Part shown: positions 8,807 to 16,468 of the stretch, one piece after another | How positions within the stretch are numbered: the first letter of the stretch is position 1 | Layout: each line of letters starts with the position of its first letter | Source of the DNA: an uncultured virus (IMG/VR IMGVR_UViG_3300029309_000009) | Taxonomy: Duplodnaviria > Heunggongvirae > Uroviricota > Caudoviricetes | Length of the DNA stretch: 23,884 bases | Strand: one strand, 5' to 3' | Virus record (IMG/VR): IMGVR_UViG_3300029309_000009 | Coordinates: 62,001 to 85,884 of that record | The notes under the pieces: generated by a model | What the model was told of the DNA's origin: nothing | Database searches by the model: none | The model's input: the letters and a program-made list of their open reading frames with translations, nothing else | Position numbers and translations under genes: made by a program

Positions 8807-8812
8807 TTGGAT

Positions 8813-9475
8813 GTGTCAGTCCTTGCAGGTTTCGCAATAGTAGTTACTGAAGCAGCAATAGCATTTTACAAAAGAATACATGCTATAAATTTCGGTGTTT
8901 ATGGTGCTACTAAAGTAGGCAAAACTACTTTGCACCATCAGTTAAGAACTAGAGGTGAAGTTCCCGATATTAAAAAAAGAACTGTTGGACTACATAGGGG
9001 AACTAGAAAAACCATAAAACTAGATGGAGAAACTCACACTTTGAAAACGGCTGATGTTGGGGGAGAATCTTTCTATTGGAAAGAATGGATAAAAGATATG
9101 CGAAAGCGTAAAGTGAATTATATTATTTTTATGATAGACCATAGACATTTAGAAAGTTCTGCAAATTTAGACCATCAATTAGCATGGAAATTTTTAGTAG
9201 ATGCAATATGTTCTTCTACTTGGCCCGATGGAAAAAAGAAAAAAGAAGCAGACTATCCTATGGCTATTGGTATTTGGGCTAACAAATATGATTTGTGGGG
9301 AAAGCGTTATTCTCATGAAGGGGAAATACAAAATCACCCCATCTACGAGCCTTTTAAATATGGGATGCAAAAATTAAATGATAAAGGAATACCTACTTTC
9401 AAGTATATCGTATCGGCTAAGTCTCAGCCCGAAATGGTTTACAAAGGAGTTACAACAATGATAAAGGACTACTGA
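8813..9475 (+). CDS. Arf/Sar-like small GTPase (Ras superfamily) with hydrophobic N-terminal helix
   Basis: G1 GATKVGKTT, G2 RTVG, G3 DVGGE, IIFMID strand, G4 WANKYD, G5 SAK. SD GGGTGA (8801-8806) favours the GTG at 8813. Confidence 0.88.
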   Translation: MSVLAGFAIVVTEAAIAFYKRIHAINFGVYGATKVGKTTLHHQLRTRGEVPDIKKRTVGLHRGTRKTIKLDGETHTLKTADVGGESFYWKEWIKDMRKRKVNYIIFMIDHRHLESSANLDHQLAWKFLVDAICSSTWPDGKKKKEADYPMAIGIWANKYDLWGKRYSHEGEIQNHPIYEPFKYGMQKLNDKGIPTFKYIVSAKSQPEMVYKGVTTMIKDY

Positions 9476-10772: not shown

Positions 10773-12251
10773 TTGATTACTTTGCCTACTAAAGTAATTG
10801 GTTTTGATGGCAGTATTGCCAATTGGCCTACTGACTATATAGATATAATAAGAAATACAGTTACAGGTAAAGATGGAGAAAGGTTTTCATTAGAAGGAAG
10901 TAAAAATATATCTACCCTTGCTCAAAATTCACAAATAAGTAATTTGATTGAATTTGATAATGATTCATTTGTAGAAGAAGGATTAGAAATATTGAAGGGA
11001 ATTGAGAATGAAAAAATATTAACTTTAGCAAAAGAAGGAAATCCTTCCGCAGTTTTATATAGAGATTTAGAAAGAAGTAGAATATTTGATGATGTTAAAG
11101 ATTTTACATTGAAAGATATGGAAGATTCAGATAATCTCTTAAAAATTATAGGTTATAGTTTATTTGGTAAAGTTACTGATAAAGAACCCGAAGAAGAAAT
11201 TGGCCTATATGAAGAATATGCGGATACACCGGCTGCTCAAAGATATGTAGAATCGTTTAGAAATATTCCGCAAACTGAAGCAGAAGGTAGAGATGCTCCA
11301 AATTTACCTGCTATGTTCATGACTAATAAGTATGAACCGATTGAAACCTTCACACTTAGAAGAAGAAAAATAGATACGTTAGATGAACATTACGAAGTAG
11401 AAATAAAAAGAGCATCCTCTAGTGATAAGGTTTCAGAATTTTTCTATTTTAACTATGATAATACTTCACAAAGAAGAAATTTTTTAGAAAGATTTTATCC
11501 TAATCTAGTTTATAAAACAACAGGAAAAGATATTTTAGACTCTACTAGAGCCGTTTCGCCAAATGTTTTGAGTGGGGATATTACCATTAATCTTGATTTT
11601 TATGAAAAACTAATAAAAAACGGAAAGTATGTTAAAGCCACCGAAGCACAAAAAATATTAAGTGATTTTTTGCAAGATGAATTTTATAAAAAGTTCTTTT
11701 TCAAGTTTAAGAAATTTTTAGAAGAATCTAATAAGGCTGACCCTCTTAGAGATGAAAAATACAAAGTATATTTTTCAGGAACTCTTAGAAAAATTCCTGT
11801 TAAGGATGCTACGCCTAAAACATTTAAGGTCAAAGTAAAAATACAATCAGTGGAAAAAGGAAGATTTGACATTAGCCCCTTTGCTAAGAATATAAGAAGA
11901 AAAGGTAAGAAACCTAATATTGATGTTATTTTACAACAGGAAATAAAAAATAGATTGGTTGCTCCTAAAGATGTTTATATGCAAGCAGTAGAGGAATATA
12001 TAGATAAGGAAAATGAACTATCAAATCTAAGCGATGAAGATACAAAACAACTTGAAGGTCAAAATATAGAGGTAGGTAAACTGCAAGAAATAATACGGGA
12101 AAGTAAAGAATCCGCTACAAAAAGAATGCAGGAATTTGAAGAATACTCTCAACGTAGAGAGTATAGATTTAATGAAAGATTAGCAGACCACATAGAAGAA
12201 ATAATGGATAGATTCTCTGTTGTAGAAAATGCAATAAAGGAGGGTGCTTGA
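10773..12251 (+). CDS. Hypothetical 492-aa charged protein
   Basis: Long ORF filling the gap between neighbours; no motif recognised; start codon uncertain. Confidence 0.75.
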   Translation: MITLPTKVIGFDGSIANWPTDYIDIIRNTVTGKDGERFSLEGSKNISTLAQNSQISNLIEFDNDSFVEEGLEILKGIENEKILTLAKEGNPSAVLYRDLERSRIFDDVKDFTLKDMEDSDNLLKIIGYSLFGKVTDKEPEEEIGLYEEYADTPAAQRYVESFRNIPQTEAEGRDAPNLPAMFMTNKYEPIETFTLRRRKIDTLDEHYEVEIKRASSSDKVSEFFYFNYDNTSQRRNFLERFYPNLVYKTTGKDILDSTRAVSPNVLSGDITINLDFYEKLIKNGKYVKATEAQKILSDFLQDEFYKKFFFKFKKFLEESNKADPLRDEKYKVYFSGTLRKIPVKDATPKTFKVKVKIQSVEKGRFDISPFAKNIRRKGKKPNIDVILQQEIKNRLVAPKDVYMQAVEEYIDKENELSNLSDEDTKQLEGQNIEVGKLQEIIRESKESATKRMQEFEEYSQRREYRFNERLADHIEEIMDRFSVVENAIKEGA

Positions 12252-12252
12252 A

Positions 12253-13374
12253 ATGCCAACCGTATTTTCCCCAAGCGACTACACTACAATTAATCCGGAT
12301 TATTCTACCGGAAAAGGATTCTATACAGATAAAGACGCTATCTCTGATTTACTACAAATACCTGCATTTACAGCAGGGACAAATCCTACTCAAGCGCAGG
12401 TAGGTTCCATCATAAAAAGAGTAGAGGGAATGATTGATGATAAAGTCAAAAGGTCTTATCGCCCCATCCGACATGAACATGAAGTTCATAATTTTAATTT
12501 TAGTAGAAATCCAGCAGATTCTTATTTTGGAGGATATGTAGGGTTTGTTCAATTGCAACACATGAAAGTTAGAAAGATTGTTAGCCTACAAGTTTGGCAA
12601 GGTAATGCGTATAAAGAATTAGCATCTGCTCAAGCAAGTATAGAAATTTTAGACCATTCTAAACTAAATACAATAGTATTGACACTTCCCGATGGTTCTA
12701 CAACTTTTACATTAAATGCTAGTAATAGCGTAGGAACGTCTTTATCTGATTCTAATTTTAATAAAAAGTTTGGAAATAAAACTACTGCTAAAGAAATTGT
12801 TGCTTTAATTAATGAGCAGTTCCCTTCCAAAACCTTTTCATTTACAAAAGCAGATAATAGAAAAAGTCTAACCGAAGATGGAGGAACCGATTATGATATT
12901 TCTGATTTCTTTTATGCAAGCACTGACCCCGACAATGGAACTAAAATAAATATATCTTCTTTACTAGAAGGCGAGGATGGTTCAGAATGTTCAATAGTTG
13001 CGACTGTTACAGCAGGAAGTGTTGCTGATTCTATTTTAGTTGAAGGATTTACCGATAGACAAGATATGAAAAGATTAGGAAGTTTCTTTAAAATTGGAAA
13101 CGAAGGTCGTTTGTTTTTCTTGAAAGACTATCCATACCATACAGAAAATTCTGTAATCGTTTCGTATATTGCAGGAGATTCTAGAGTTCCTTCCGCAATA
13201 CATGAAGCCGCTACTAAATTAGCAGCAGCAGAAATTTTAAGACATGATGACCAAACTATTCTAATTGCAGAAACAGGAGCAAATATAACTACTAAAGAAA
13301 AATATGATATTCTTAAAACTGAGGCTATGGCAATTCTAGATGGCAAGAAAGATGTAGTGTATATTATTGAGTGA
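12253..13374 (+). CDS. Head-tail adaptor (SPP1 gp15/HK97 gp6-like) with a large inserted domain
   Basis: N-terminal YTDKDAISDLL...IIKRVEGMIDD and C-terminal VSYIAGDSRVPSAIHEAATKLAAAEIL fit the adaptor pattern; SD GGAGGG before ATG 12253. Confidence 0.7.
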   Translation: MPTVFSPSDYTTINPDYSTGKGFYTDKDAISDLLQIPAFTAGTNPTQAQVGSIIKRVEGMIDDKVKRSYRPIRHEHEVHNFNFSRNPADSYFGGYVGFVQLQHMKVRKIVSLQVWQGNAYKELASAQASIEILDHSKLNTIVLTLPDGSTTFTLNASNSVGTSLSDSNFNKKFGNKTTAKEIVALINEQFPSKTFSFTKADNRKSLTEDGGTDYDISDFFYASTDPDNGTKINISSLLEGEDGSECSIVATVTAGSVADSILVEGFTDRQDMKRLGSFFKIGNEGRLFFLKDYPYHTENSVIVSYIAGDSRVPSAIHEAATKLAAAEILRHDDQTILIAETGANITTKEKYDILKTEAMAILDGKKDVVYIIE

Positions 13375-13378
13375 TAAT

Positions 13379-13585
13379 ATGTTTGAAGACATTAGCCAAA
13401 AGTTTGAAAAATATCTAGAAATAGAAAAGGAAAGAAATTTACAAATGCTTGAAGTTTCTAGATTATTAGGAGTAGACTTTACTTTTTCAGAAGAAGAACT
13501 AATTAAAAATGTAGAGCAAAAGATAGCAGACTATATGGAGAAAACTTTACAAGAAAAATTCAAAAAAATGGTTGAGGGAATATAA
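13379..13585 (+). CDS. Small helical hypothetical protein in the neck region
   Basis: ORF bridging adaptor and terminator with a TAATG overlap; start 13367 or 13379. Confidence 0.65.
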   Translation: MFEDISQKFEKYLEIEKERNLQMLEVSRLLGVDFTFSEEELIKNVEQKIADYMEKTLQEKFKKMVEGI

Positions 13586-14117: not shown

Positions 14118-15734
14118 ATGACAAACACAGACATATTTTTAGGAAGCGGTGCAACATTATCATTAGTGCCGGAATTAGATTTATTTGCTTTAGTTAATCA
14201 TAGTGCTAGTAACACTACTAAATTAATACCTGAAGATGCCTTTATTGTAAATTATCTTCTAGTAAATAATTTATATGTGGGTTGTGTTCTAGAACTTTAC
14301 GAAACGGGAACTACTTCTCCCTTGTCTGTTCATACTGTTACTGAAAACGATTCTACTTCCTTTACTATTTCACCTGCTTGCAGAACTCCTGCTTCGGGGG
14401 ATTTTATAGTAATAAAGTCCTATGGCGCACCTAGCGTTGGGCAAAGAAATTCTTCTGTTAAAAGACTAAATGCTGACAATTGGTTAGGAATTTTAGAAAG
14501 TGCAGAATTTCCAAACGTAGAAGTAGAGGTCAAGCAATCAAATCTTTCTTTGGGAGGTTCTAGAAACTTTACCCATCAGTATAAGGGAATAGAAACTGCA
14601 AGTGGAGGAAACTTGAACATTGTGGCTAATCAAGGAACTTGGCTATACTATGCTTTAGGTGCTTGTGAGCAAGTTTTAGCAAAAACGAATAATGACCATC
14701 CTACTAGTAAAACAGATGCTTCGGTGGCAGGAGATGTATATATTGATACAGGAAATGCAGGAGATTCCGGACAAAGCACAATTCAAACTCATTTGAATCA
14801 AGGGCCAATATTTTACAAGACAGGATATGCGGCTACCGGAGTTGCGGGGGATGCTTTAACTCCTCCATTAGTAAATCATTTAGACTTACATACTAATACA
14901 GAACAATTAGTGCTTCCATCTACTCCTTCCTCTATAACAGATGCAATCACATATACATTTATAGAGGCAAACGGAGAGGACTTACCTTCTTTTGCATTAG
15001 AACAATCTATTAGCAAACTAGTTAGTGGTTCTGAGAACTTGACAGATACTTCTGCCAATTTAGAAGACTTAAACTTCGTAAGAATTGCAAGAGGAAATAG
15101 AGTCAATACTTTTACTATGACCGCAAACGAAAACGAAGAAGTAAAAATGACTCTTGACCTAATGACAAGAACTGTTCACAAGTTAGACCAAAACGAAGTA
15201 TATGAATCTAGAGGTGGCGCAGGAACTGTCAATACCAATTTGTTTAACTTTGAAACAGATGAATTCTTAGAACCATTCTTTTTCTCAAGAGGTTCCTTTA
15301 GTTTATTCGGACAACAGTTCCTAAAGGTTACAAATATGACTTTGACAATCAATAACAATTTACAAGAAAAGAGATTCATTGGTGTAGGAAACACTTCTAT
15401 TCAAGATGCTATTCCGTCAAATAGAGGATACGAATTATCATTTACTGCTTTAGTAACAGATGATTTACTCTTTGAGGAACTGTTCAATAGAAATGAAAAT
15501 ACAGGAACTTCCGTAGTTACAAATGGAACAAACTTTGCCACTGATGCACAGATTGATTTGAAATTCAATAAAGCAAATAACGAAGAAATTAATATCTCTT
15601 TCAAGAACTATTTCCTAGAAAGTGCAAACTTTACAATACCGGATGACAAAGGGCCAATAACTGTTGAAGCAATGGTAAGGCCAAGAGATTTGAAGGAATG
15701 CACAGTAAAAACCCATTGGATTTTACAGGGGTGA
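14118..15734 (+). CDS. Major tail tube protein with inserted domains
   Basis: Tube-like motifs LPSFALEQ, RVNTFTMTANENEEVKMTLDL, NMTLTINNNL and RGYELSFTA; precedes the chaperones and tape measure; SD GGAGAGGG. Confidence 0.78.
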   Translation: MTNTDIFLGSGATLSLVPELDLFALVNHSASNTTKLIPEDAFIVNYLLVNNLYVGCVLELYETGTTSPLSVHTVTENDSTSFTISPACRTPASGDFIVIKSYGAPSVGQRNSSVKRLNADNWLGILESAEFPNVEVEVKQSNLSLGGSRNFTHQYKGIETASGGNLNIVANQGTWLYYALGACEQVLAKTNNDHPTSKTDASVAGDVYIDTGNAGDSGQSTIQTHLNQGPIFYKTGYAATGVAGDALTPPLVNHLDLHTNTEQLVLPSTPSSITDAITYTFIEANGEDLPSFALEQSISKLVSGSENLTDTSANLEDLNFVRIARGNRVNTFTMTANENEEVKMTLDLMTRTVHKLDQNEVYESRGGAGTVNTNLFNFETDEFLEPFFFSRGSFSLFGQQFLKVTNMTLTINNNLQEKRFIGVGNTSIQDAIPSNRGYELSFTALVTDDLLFEELFNRNENTGTSVVTNGTNFATDAQIDLKFNKANNEEINISFKNYFLESANFTIPDDKGPITVEAMVRPRDLKECTVKTHWILQG

Positions 15735-15739
15735 TTTTC

Positions 15740-15847
15740 TTGGATAAATATACTAAGAGAAGAATTATGGCAGAAAAACTCAAGGCTCCTAAGAAAAGAG
15801 GCCGACCAAAAAAAGAGGTAGTTAAAGAAGAAGAAACTACTGAATGA
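15740..15847 (+). CDS. 35-aa AT-hook microprotein (not in ORF track)
   Basis: SD GGGGTGA (15728-15734), TTG start, MDKYTKRRIMAEKLKAPKKRGRPKKEVVKEEETTE*; alternative ATG at 15767. Confidence 0.65.
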   Translation: MDKYTKRRIMAEKLKAPKKRGRPKKEVVKEEETTE

Positions 15848-15849
15848 TA

Positions 15850-15893
15850 TTCCACCAACACCGTTTGTTCGTTTGTTGGTTTTGTAGGTGGAA
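15850..15893 (+). promoter_or_regulatory. Potential RNA structure overlapping the RBS of the tail chaperone gene
   Basis: TTCCACC (15850-56) is complementary to GGTGGAA (15887-93); ACCAACA (15854-60) is complementary to TGTTGGT (15874-80). Confidence 0.45.
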
Positions 15894-15896
15894 AGA

Positions 15897-16265
15897 ATGT
15901 TAAACAAAAAAATAGTAAGTGACAAGAGTGTAATGTTTGCACTCTCAGAAGCAAAATGCCATTGGATAAAAGTTTCAGAGGATTCTGAAGAATATCTAAA
16001 AGTATGGATTAAAGACCCTACTTGGCTAGAAGTAGAAAAAGCAGTGAACTCTTTAATGAACATTGATGCTAAGAATCAAAGTTTAGATATTGATTTAAAT
16101 AAAATGTATCGCTATATGGTTGATAATTTTATTACAAAAACTGAGCCTTCTTTATCTACGGTTGATTTAATTAGACTCAATCCCTATATTGGTAATCAAA
16201 TAAAAGAAATACTTCCTAATCCCTTTGAATTAATGTCGGGGGATGAAGAAAAAAACGCAAATTGA
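15897..16265 (+). CDS. Tail assembly chaperone (lambda gpG-like)
   Basis: Between tube and tape measure; SD AGGTGG then ATG 15897; ends at a slippery site. Confidence 0.75.
   Translation: MLNKKIVSDKSVMFALSEAKCHWIKVSEDSEEYLKVWIKDPTWLEVEKAVNSLMNIDAKNQSLDIDLNKMYRYMVDNFITKTEPSLSTVDLIRLNPYIGNQIKEILPNPFELMSGDEEKNAN
16250..16256 (+). other. Programmed -1 ribosomal frameshift site A AAA AAC
   Basis: X XXY YYZ heptamer in the correct phase (GAA AAA AAC GCA AAT TGA); the -1 frame continues RKLRRAVRRGEG into ORF 16262..16468. Confidence 0.8.
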
Positions 16266-16468
16266 GGCGAGCAGTTAGGCGAGGTGAAGGAGATACCTCA
16301 ACAGCAAGCCTCATAATAGTTTATACCTTAGCAAAAGCATTGGGAATAAATCCTTTAGAAGTATATGAGATGCCAGCACAACTAGTAATGGATATGCTAA
16401 CAATTCACGGCATAGTAGAAGAATATAAAGCGGAAGAACTAGAAAAGAAATCCAAGAAGGTGAAATAA
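16262..16468 (+). CDS. Frameshift extension of the tail assembly chaperone (gpT-like)
   Basis: In the -1 frame of the chaperone, no evident SD of its own; YTLAKALGINPLEVYEMP fits the gpGT C-terminal pattern. Confidence 0.72.
   Translation: MRRAVRRGEGDTSTASLIIVYTLAKALGINPLEVYEMPAQLVMDMLTIHGIVEEYKAEELEKKSKKVK

Follow-up and report, generated by a model that had tools for sequence, protein, structure and literature searches.

A defining feature of the Arf family of small GTPases is an N-terminal amphipathic helix that is freed upon GTP binding, and in the Asgard ArfR proteins and in Arl8, as in the viral protein described here, this helix has no myristoylation signal (10.1101/2024.02.28.582541). 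In MglA, Arg53, the residue just before Thr54 of switch I, serves as an intrinsic arginine finger together with Gln82, while MglB, the GTPase activating protein (GAP) of MglA, merely orients Arg53 and Gln82 (PMC3199381). The Arf-like GTPase ArvA of Haloferax volcanii has an N-terminal amphipathic helix and drives the formation of vesicles, with the gene for ArvB directly after its own and that for ArvC, a proposed GAP, within two genes (PMC10927574). Arf-type GTPases have also been found on an archaeal mobile element, an integrated mobile-like region of Atabeyarchaeia (PMC11529989).

Here we describe a small GTPase gene in a stretch of 23,884 nucleotides (the window), which makes up positions 62001–85884 of the IMG/VR virus record IMGVR_UViG_3300029309_000009, a record of 85,884 bp with a CheckV completeness of 93. 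The original prediction, made from the letters of the window alone, had read the product as an Arf-type GTPase of a prokaryotic virus with Glu at the catalytic Gln position and a hydrophobic N-terminal helix, and as a slow or GAP-dependent switch that might act as a timer. Judged by its sequence and its predicted structure, the protein belongs to a separate, so far virus-only GTPase family with an Arf/Sar/SR-beta-like fold and motif pattern.

The GTPase frame could begin with the GTG at 8813 or with an in-frame TTG at 8807. In 80 related viral loci the homologues mostly carry ATG, GTG or TTG at the place of 8813, and their proteins begin MS[VL][LM][AT]GF. Because the homologue starts coincide at this position, 8813 was taken as the likely start, and residues are numbered with Met1 at 8813 (coordinates of all features are collected in Table 1). 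We refer to these close relatives (80 loci) as clade 1 and to a distant viral clade (loci L086–L165) as clade 2. The motif strings quoted in the original prediction are all present in the open reading frame (ORF), including IIFMID at residues 104–109 and WANKYDL at residues 155–161. Every locus (80/80) has the P-loop, NKxD and, 12 residues past the Asp of switch II, the Trp, and the invariant columns among 26 family members are G31, G36, K37, D81, G84, D109, N157 and K158.

Measured against six relatives with unsaturated synonymous divergence, the ratio of non-synonymous to synonymous substitution rates (dN/dS) of the gene was 0.035–0.085. A seventh relative had 0 non-synonymous changes at a proportion of synonymous differences (pS) of 0.096, and in two further pairs dS was saturated. 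The GTPase gene is real and is under strong purifying selection. An AlphaFold2 (AF2) model built from the alignment had a mean predicted local distance difference test score (pLDDT) of 91.2 and a predicted TM-score (pTM) of 0.86. As expected of the Ras superfamily (TRAFAC), motifs G1 to G5 occur in order and are conserved, and all 1000 structure chains that were re-ranked in the fold comparison below gave Z ≥ 8; the window GTPase scored 27.4 bits on TIGR00231 (small_GTP) vs a cut-off of 42.5. The protein is very probably a real GTP-binding switch with an Arf-like fold. The claim of a small GTPase in a prokaryotic virus held up on both counts, as the protein is a genuine small GTPase and the virus an archaeal tailed virus (see below).

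We then compared the family with GTPases of known structure. Among the sequences of solved structures, the best match of the family profile was 8oun_A (E = 1.1e-9, 41.4 bits), in an alignment that begins in the N-terminal helix; this entry is full-length, GDP-bound GerdArfR1, an Asgard Arf (10.1101/2024.02.28.582541). The next matches were Arl3 (37.1 bits), KRas (36.6 bits) and Rab33B (36.0 bits). When the 1000 best chains of a Foldseek search were aligned with VIA-align, rows 1–35 were all of the Arf family, comprising Arf6, Arl1, Arf1, Arl3, Arl6, Arl8, Arl2 and GerdArfR1 (Z 18.9–17.6; root mean square deviation (rmsd) 2.3–5.5 Å, with 31/35 at 2.3–2.7 Å). Behind these ranked a RagA-like protein of Asgard archaea, G-alpha (17.5) and a Rab from mimivirus (17.2). 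A second fold search, independent of Foldseek and run against 48,161 cluster representatives, gave Z-scores of 18.4 and 18.3 for Arf6, 17.7 for Sar1, 17.6 for SR-beta, 17.5 for the Asgard RagA-like protein, 17.2 for the mimivirus Rab, 16.9 for G-alpha-i, 15.3 for Ran, 15.0 for RhoA, and 14.4 and 13.9 for Roc. MglA was not among the best 50 rows of this search, which is a mere absence. The closest fold is that of the Arf family, by a margin of only about 1 Z unit over Rag and Rab.

Profile comparisons extended the likeness over the length of the protein. A metagenome scan gave a group of eukaryotic ARFRP1-like genes (L166–L177); one of them scored 163 bits on Pfam Arf. Aligned with hhalign against five of these ARFRP1-like proteins, the viral family gave a probability of 97.6 (E = 3.9e-12, score 80.7) over 163 columns, and the alignment pairs RTVG with the TTVG of the Arf-family alignment, Glu85 with its Gln and Trp92 with its Trp. 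The same pairing of Glu85 with Gln and of Trp92 with Trp was seen in HMMER alignments to GerdArfR1 and Arl3. As controls, three actinobacterial conservon (CvnD) GTPases, presumably MglA-like and all three with a Roadblock neighbour gene, gave a probability of 96.5 and a score of 66.8 over only 89 columns in the N-terminal half, and one Rab-like protein of a Legionella plasmid gave 77.7. Arf was the best Pfam family for three distant relatives of the viral GTPase, P0037 (57.2 bits), P0059 (39.5 bits) and P0035 (27.2 bits; cut-off 22.3), and in the nearest named clusters of the ESM Atlas PF00025 was found in 17–100% of members.

The viral proteins share with the Arf family a switch II of the form DxGG[Q/E]x6W with an aligned Trp, and an N-terminal helix that precedes strand beta-1, in addition to the best fold matches, the best sequence match to GerdArfR1 and the full-length hhalign match. 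They differ in having Glu (in the window) at the Gln position, a switch-I Thr preceded by Arg, where Arf proteins have Pro or Thr, a longer and much more hydrophobic N-terminal helix of low moment, a G5 that reads SAK, and insertions before strand beta-5 (polybasic) and about 25 residues after NKxD. Set against the Arf pattern DxGGQxxxRxxW, switch II of the window protein (residues 80–92, ADVGGESFYWKEW) keeps the Asp, the Gly-Gly and the Trp, whereas Gln is replaced by Glu and the Arg position is taken by Trp. Arf proteins are further marked by an interswitch toggle, in which beta2-beta3 shift register by two residues.

Several results weigh against strict membership of the Arf family. Arf, Sar1, SR-beta, Rag and Rab score within 1–2 Z units of one another, and the native ranking of Foldseek begins with Rab1 and Rab6. 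The window GTPase had no match to Pfam Arf at E ≤ 10, or at E ≤ 1 in six frames, and Pfam Ras (19.2), Roc (19.8), MMR_HSR1 (18.8) and SRPRB (15.3) each stayed below their cut-offs; the relative P0001, which is 63% identical, reached 16.8 bits on Pfam Arf, below 22.3, and only P0037, P0059 and P0035 passed. Passing the Pfam Arf model is itself not diagnostic, because the model exceeds its cut-off in 13/14 control prokaryote genomes. A quick IQ-TREE analysis of 44 rows, thinly sampled and without Ras, Sar1, SR-beta, G-alpha, ArvA and true MglA, placed both viral clades together with P0035, P0037, P0059 and P0064 on one side (SH-aLRT 98). Four ARFRP1-like proteins, three CvnD and one Rab were on the other side, and no sister group of the viral family was resolved. 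The Arf-type claim of the original prediction therefore stands in part: the Arf family supplies the best matches in fold and in profile, but Pfam Arf failed and the tree leaves the sister group open. A grouping with MglA, which had been named as the outcome that would count against the claim, was not what the tree gave, as the family stood apart from the MglA-like (CvnD) controls.

To date the family has been found in viruses. We counted 235 close relatives of the GTPase on viral contigs and 81 relatives in clade 2 (proteins of about 240 aa). In a HMMER scan of 1.84 billion representatives 65 proteins matched at E ≤ 0.001, mostly fragments of the viral GTPase family and none of them a classical small GTPase. 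With the family profile, a word-indexed search matched 738 clusters (E ≤ 0.001). Those listed, 120 in number, were of marine metagenome origin, on contigs of up to 96 kb, and nearly all lacked a name; two among these 120 carry the automatic JGI name "GTPase SAR1 family protein". The clusters of the family in the ESM Atlas were labelled 93–100% Viruses. Scans of prokaryotes at one genome per species, with the window GTPase and with an alignment of P0037 and P0059, gave no relative by a method that detects close relatives only, and no match at E ≤ 0.01 turned up when 50,697 phage records were searched with the GTPase by tblastn. Fused forms of the GTPase of 386–2000 aa were not found either, which is weak evidence. 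The distant relative P0037 is a singleton on a 1.6-kb contig and had no relative on viral contigs. One further candidate, the 775-aa repeat protein P0061 (E = 2.8e-4, 19% identity), was set aside as a chance match.

In a converse test we picked 80 loci by similarity of their capsid protein (75–99% identity); in 54 of them the capsid gene is followed by 2.6 kb or more. The GTPase was present in 54/54 of these, 1.6–2.4 kb after the capsid gene, and it is on this ground a core gene of this virus group. Its median identity was 68%, exceeded among 14 neighbouring genes compared only by that of the capsid protein (74%).

The hhalign pairing bears out the original reading of Glu85 as the counterpart of Arf Gln71. 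Glu85 directly follows DVGG and is encoded by GAA at 9065–9067; Glu (GAR) and Gln (CAR) codons are one base apart. Across the 80 clade-1 loci the position is Glu in 49 and Gln in 31, and across 197 close members (after four rows without the regular-expression motif, P0124, P0132, P0144 and P0168, were dropped) it is Glu in 140 and Gln in 57, with 4–5 changes on FastTree trees, 2 of them on well-supported branches. The 77/80 clade-2 proteins that were scored, three ORFs having been dropped from this count and from that of Arg-Thr below, have Gln in 52, Glu in 18 and Asp in 7. Other remote relatives have Gln, His, Glu, Asp or Ala, and His follows DxGG in the distant relatives P0014, P0033 and P0062. 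Sar1 and SR-beta have His after DxGG. Raw counts of Glu or Gln with Val or Ala in the P-loop were Glu-Val 132, Gln-Ala 52, Glu-Ala 7 and Gln-Val 5, and these amount to only 2–4 independent pairs; covariation with the hydrophobicity of the N-terminal helix likewise rests on only 2–4 independent pairs, too few to judge.

The H-Ras substitution Q61E has been cited as increasing intrinsic GTPase activity (PMC2987813, a citing paper), and in a review of non-canonical GTPases (PMC13236570) we found no mention of Glu or of Gln61. That the switch is slow or GAP-dependent, as had been suggested from Glu85, does not follow from this residue, because the position is polymorphic among close relatives and Q61E is cited as raising activity; the invariant Arg of switch I also speaks against it. 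From the alignments, Glu85 is best described as a tolerated variant of the water-orienting Gln and not as a knock-out.

This Arg lies directly before the switch-I Thr in 79/79 clade-1 proteins and in 77/77 scored clade-2 proteins. Thr57 was identified as the G2 threonine by alignment with HTIG of Rab14 and with TTVG of the Arf-family alignment, and the spacing from Arg-Thr to the Asp of DxxG is 24 residues in clade 1 and 32–34 residues in clade 2. Both the Arg before the switch-I Thr and a long spacing from Thr to DxxG are features of MglA, and MglA and CvnD resemble the viral protein further in being prokaryote-type small GTPases in operons with fixed partners. In contrast to the viral GTPase, MglA has no N-terminal membrane helix. 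By analogy with MglA Arg53 we infer that Arg56 is a candidate intrinsic arginine finger of the viral GTPase. The catalytic machinery formed by Arg56 and Glu85 probably belongs to the protein itself, as it does in MglA or G-alpha, and a partner would therefore orient these residues rather than supply them. Pfam detected no MglB-type Roadblock/LC7 partner on the four neighbouring genes X, Y, Z and W (described below), W giving only a sub-threshold match to DUF7217.

Next, the N-terminus was analyzed. Residues 2–21 read SVLAGFAIVVTEAAIAFYKR, with Ser and not Gly at residue 2, and in the model residues 2–22 form a helix with pLDDT 68–78 (assigned by DSSP). Hydrophobicity was scored with the Kyte-Doolittle scale in a 19-residue window (KD19; usual membrane threshold 1.6). 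This helix is conserved. It is very hydrophobic, with a mean of 0.83 and a KD19 maximum of 1.85–1.97, and scarcely amphipathic, with a hydrophobic moment of 0.21. An N-terminal helix without Gly2 was thus present as originally described, and in the subclade of the window it is hydrophobic enough for membrane entry. The median KD19 maximum was 1.69 for relatives with Glu at position 85 (E-type), 1.33 for those with Gln (Q-type) and 0.8–1.3 for distant relatives. Two points count against membrane insertion as a family trait, namely the low moment and the Q-type and distant helices (KD19 0.8–1.4), which are too weak for a span, and the helix could instead pack against protein. For the family as a whole, an in-plane or short hydrophobic anchor fits the hydropathy values better than a true membrane span; in the window's own subclade the helix may span the membrane. 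A basic stretch before strand beta-5 was present in all alignment rows shown and was gapped by hhalign against the Arf-family alignment; this predicted polybasic loop may add membrane affinity.

The proteins of the window include, by Pfam and PHROG matches, a ligase-domain protein, a prohead protease, a major capsid protein of HK97/SU10 type, a tail-tube-like protein and a tape-measure protein. Outside the window the genome encodes a second ATP-dependent ligase, a Cpn60/TCP1 chaperonin, a TFIIB zinc ribbon, ERCC4, a PD-(D/E)XK nuclease and a family-B DNA polymerase in two ORFs (Table 1). Group-B magroviruses have a split polymerase, two ligases, one of them embedded in the structural module, and a chaperonin; the split family-B polymerase is given for seven group-B magroviruses, and the structural-module ligase is a trait of groups A and B (PMC5434244). 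Because its split polymerase, two ligases and chaperonin match these traits, the virus is of the group-B magrovirus type, and the window is the structural module of such a virus, i.e., of a tailed virus of Marine Group II archaea, which count as some of the surface ocean's most abundant microorganisms (PMC5434244). The nearest named relatives of the capsid protein were those of the haloarchaeal tailed viruses HCTV-5, HVTV-1 and HCTV-1 (23–25% identity), and other near relatives belong to viruses assigned to Methanomassiliicoccales and Methanofastidiosa. In the ligase-domain protein about 260 N-terminal and about 400 C-terminal residues had no family match. The last ORF of the window had no Pfam or PHROG family match and, as it comes after the tape measure, probably encodes a protein of the tail or of host recognition.

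Table 1. Features of the GTPase locus and of the viral genome; positions are those of the window unless stated otherwise.
Feature	Position	Strand	Remarks
Protein with ATP-dependent DNA ligase domain, 840 aa	1899–4421	+	domain at residues 260–443, 94 bits
Gene X, 131 aa	8182–8577	+	two predicted membrane helices (KD19 segments 10–29, 39–66), charged C-terminal tail
Gene Y, 75 aa	8579–8806	+	one predicted membrane helix (KD19 segment 38–63)
Small GTPase gene, 220 aa	8813–9475	+	GTG start; from ORF list and sequence, start from homologues
N-terminal hydrophobic helix, residues 2–22 (SVLAGFAIVVTEAAIAFYKRI)	8816–8878	+	conserved Glu13; DSSP on model
G1 / P-loop GATKVGKT, residues 31–38	8903–8926	+	from sequence; G31, G36, K37 invariant
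Switch I Arg56-Thr57, within RTVG (56–59)	8978–8983	+	G2 Thr after invariant Arg
G3 / switch II DVGGESFYWKEW, residues 81–92	9053–9088	+	Glu85 and Trp92; from sequence and alignments
Polybasic loop KKKK, residues 141–144	9233–9244	+	in insertion before strand beta-5; from alignment
G4 NKYD, residues 157–160	9281–9292	+	N157, K158 invariant; NKYD 71/80, NKFD 9/80 loci
G5 SAK, residues 201–203	9413–9421	+	VSAK/ISAK in 74/80 loci by regular expression; another match in the remaining 6/80
Gene Z, 213 aa	9481–10122	+	Cys/His protein, CVVCG ... TYCPKH; directly after GTPase
Gene W, 215 aa	10124–10771	+	Gln/Gly-rich; third of conserved trio
ORF of >1,432 aa	19588–23883	+	after tape measure; runs past 3' end of window and record
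Family-B DNA polymerase, two ORFs about 1 kb apart	12685–13578 and 14606–16333 (of record)	-	outside window

The genes X, Y, GTPase, Z and W abut or nearly do so, with the stop codon of X 1 nt before the start of Y and that of Y adjoining the GTPase frame. Homologues were found in clade 1 for X in 77/80 loci, for Y in 78/80, for Z in 73/80 and for W in 68/80. In clade 2 a jackhmmer search of the locus ORFs recovered GTPase, Z and W in the same order in 80/80 loci; no other window gene was detectable there, including the capsid protein, X and Y (0/80 loci). At three clade-2 loci that we inspected, proteins of the size of X and Y lie at the same places: all three X-type proteins have one or two predicted membrane helices, and 2/3 of the Y-type proteins have a predicted membrane helix. 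Protein Z has the invariant residues C74, T107, C109 and H112, while the second Cys of its CxxC is not conserved in clade 2; it had no Pfam, PHROG or NCBIfam match, and its ESM Atlas scores were ≤0.84. Protein W, whose middle is rich in Gln and Gly, scored 17.8 bits on Pfam DUF7217, for which the cut-off is 29. The end of W reads GRPYWLDANGQASYEPP, then AAWAKWLM, a WW-like stretch and an amphipathic tail.

The neighbourhood varies at certain points. The 492-aa gene after W (10773–12251, + strand) occupies a variable slot, with a homologue in 14–16/80 loci, whereas both flanking genes are retained. In relatives, the joints of the GTPase gene hold inserted small genes that all start with M(IT)MW.KILK, three of them between GTPase and Z at L016 (6666–7836) and one between Y and GTPase at L027 (5485–5988); the tag is absent from the whole genome of the window's virus.

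The best overall explanation that we can offer, to which we give roughly even chances, is that of an active GTPase, from a family that branches off the Arf/Sar/SR-beta-like part of the Ras superfamily, that serves as a late, membrane-attached switch acting with Z and W. The GTPase would be made late in infection, from the head-tail gene block, its N-terminal helix would attach it to the host membrane, perhaps aided by the polybasic loop, and it would cycle between GTP and GDP states. It would work with Z and W, one or other of which may be its regulator or effector, and in the clade of the window also with the membrane proteins X and Y. The target would be the host membrane, with progeny release the most attractive process. 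Taken by itself, the proposal of a membrane-associated switch acting with Z and W seems to us evenly poised.

A role in egress is a guess, and a doubtful one. Holins have been described as small membrane proteins that have one or more transmembrane domains and, C-terminally, a charged hydrophilic domain, and that are encoded beside lysis genes (PMC10791045). Protein X is built in this generic way, being small, with two predicted membrane helices and a tail that carries charge; Pfam and PHROG recognised neither a holin nor an endolysin family in the window. Weighing against the proposed switch and its role in release are the facts that the cassette is tied to lysis only by the genes around it and by how X is built, that X and Y of the two viral clades are not detectably similar in sequence, and that the model of Z (pLDDT 71.8) gave no fold match (best Z-score 3.9). 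A bolder form of the proposal, which we regard as improbable, would make the five-gene block the missing release machine of archaeal tailed viruses, a nucleotide-gated lysis clock without bacteriophage counterpart. Its mechanistic detail, in which a GTPase with its own arginine finger and E/Q residue would read the GTP state of the cell and time the opening or remodelling of the host membrane by the membrane proteins, seems just as improbable.

The nearest functional analogue, by description, is ArvABC (OapABC), in which an Arf-like GTPase with an N-terminal helix shares an operon with a zinc-type protein and which is linked to the deforming of membranes in archaea (PMC10927574). The cassette could be a viral counterpart of this system, with the GTPase like ArvA and Z like the zinc-ribbon protein ArvC, and would then serve the formation of vesicles or buds rather than lysis. 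A GTPase with an N-terminal helix is indeed constantly followed by a Cys/His protein, which in the virus lies directly downstream of the GTPase, in a gene order different from that of ArvABC. Neither OapB (PF09846) nor OapC (PF09845) had a match in six frames of the 85.9-kb genome, while the controls Haloferax volcanii and Methanosarcina acetivorans were positive. Z in turn had no Pfam match at E ≤ 0.01 and no fold match, its second CxxC Cys is not conserved in clade 2, and tailed viruses are not enveloped. We consider such a counterpart unlikely.

The GTPase might instead be a virion assembly factor, anchored in the membrane to place or time the assembly of capsid, neck or tail, with no role in release. 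The gene lies between capsid and tail genes in a co-oriented, abutting block, and it is a core gene that is conserved nearly like the capsid protein. HVTV-1, the closest named virus by capsid protein, was informative here. Between its capsid and tail-chaperone genes it has no P-loop protein, and it keeps homologues there of the window genes 12244–13374 and 14118–15734. Since HVTV-1 has the flanking genes and not the P-loop protein, the GTPase cassette is, on gene content, an insertion into a common head-tail layout, and thus lies outside the common assembly line. The trio of clade 2, moreover, has quite different neighbours, and the GTPase has no PHROG match. An assembly factor is in our view a slim prospect. 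Gene 124 of HVTV-1 (L182 11250–11582), which encodes a protein of 110 aa with a strongly hydrophobic segment (KD19 maximum 2.04), lies between capsid and neck genes, at about the place that the cassette occupies in magroviruses.

Under an SR-beta-type arrangement, the protein would be held permanently by a true N-terminal transmembrane helix, and its nucleotide state would control partner binding while the helix itself stayed static. Sar1 and SR-beta resemble the viral GTPase in fold (Z 17.7 and 17.6, tied with Arf, and for SR-beta within 1 of Arf6) and in having a membrane-directed N-terminus without lipid modification; the KD19 of the window N-terminus lies above 1.6, and a weak Pfam match to SRPRB was seen in 14/26 family members. 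The helix, however, carries the conserved Glu13 in its middle, and the Q-type (median 1.33) and distant (0.8–1.3) helices fall under the threshold. SRPRB scored 15.3 bits vs a cut-off of 25 in the window protein, and no SRX/longin-like neighbour, nor any like Sec23/24 or Sec12, was recognised in the Pfam scan. Overall, we think this arrangement quite unlikely. A GTP-locked or hydrolysis-dead pseudo-switch, in which Glu85 would cripple hydrolysis and leave the protein on until a GAP or dilution ended it, as a slow timer, is very unlikely: conserved neighbours that could regulate the GTPase are always present, and Glu at the catalytic-Gln position is, to our knowledge, unusual among described small GTPases, but repeated E/Q swaps occur among close relatives under strong purifying selection, the H-Ras variant mentioned above is cited as having increased intrinsic activity, and the invariant Arg stands where MglA has its intrinsic finger.

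No GTPase is mentioned in the main texts of four magrovirus papers (PMC5434244, PMC10160649, PMC11706807 and PMC8651126) or in the supplements of the first three (for the last of these, bar one file). Full-text searches for magrovirus with GTPase, and for archaeal viruses with small GTPase or Arf, found no description of it. The nearest precedent that we found is that of the Arf GTPases in the mobile region of Atabeyarchaeia, which the authors' tree groups with Arf proteins of Asgard archaea and eukaryotes (PMC11529989), whereas the magrovirus family fails the Arf model and is found in tailed viruses of Marine Group II archaea. According to a 2024 review, the holins of archaeal tailed viruses have been elusive and the players in their egress uncharacterised (PMC10791045).

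With regard to the biology of these viruses, a conserved core GTPase with fixed partners and membrane proteins is a testable candidate for a membrane step of infection. The natural alternation of Glu and Gln next to an invariant switch-I Arg amounts to a natural experiment on what the "catalytic glutamine" position needs. The family would also extend Arf-like switches to viruses of non-Asgard archaea, which bears on the spread of such switches before and outside eukaryotes.

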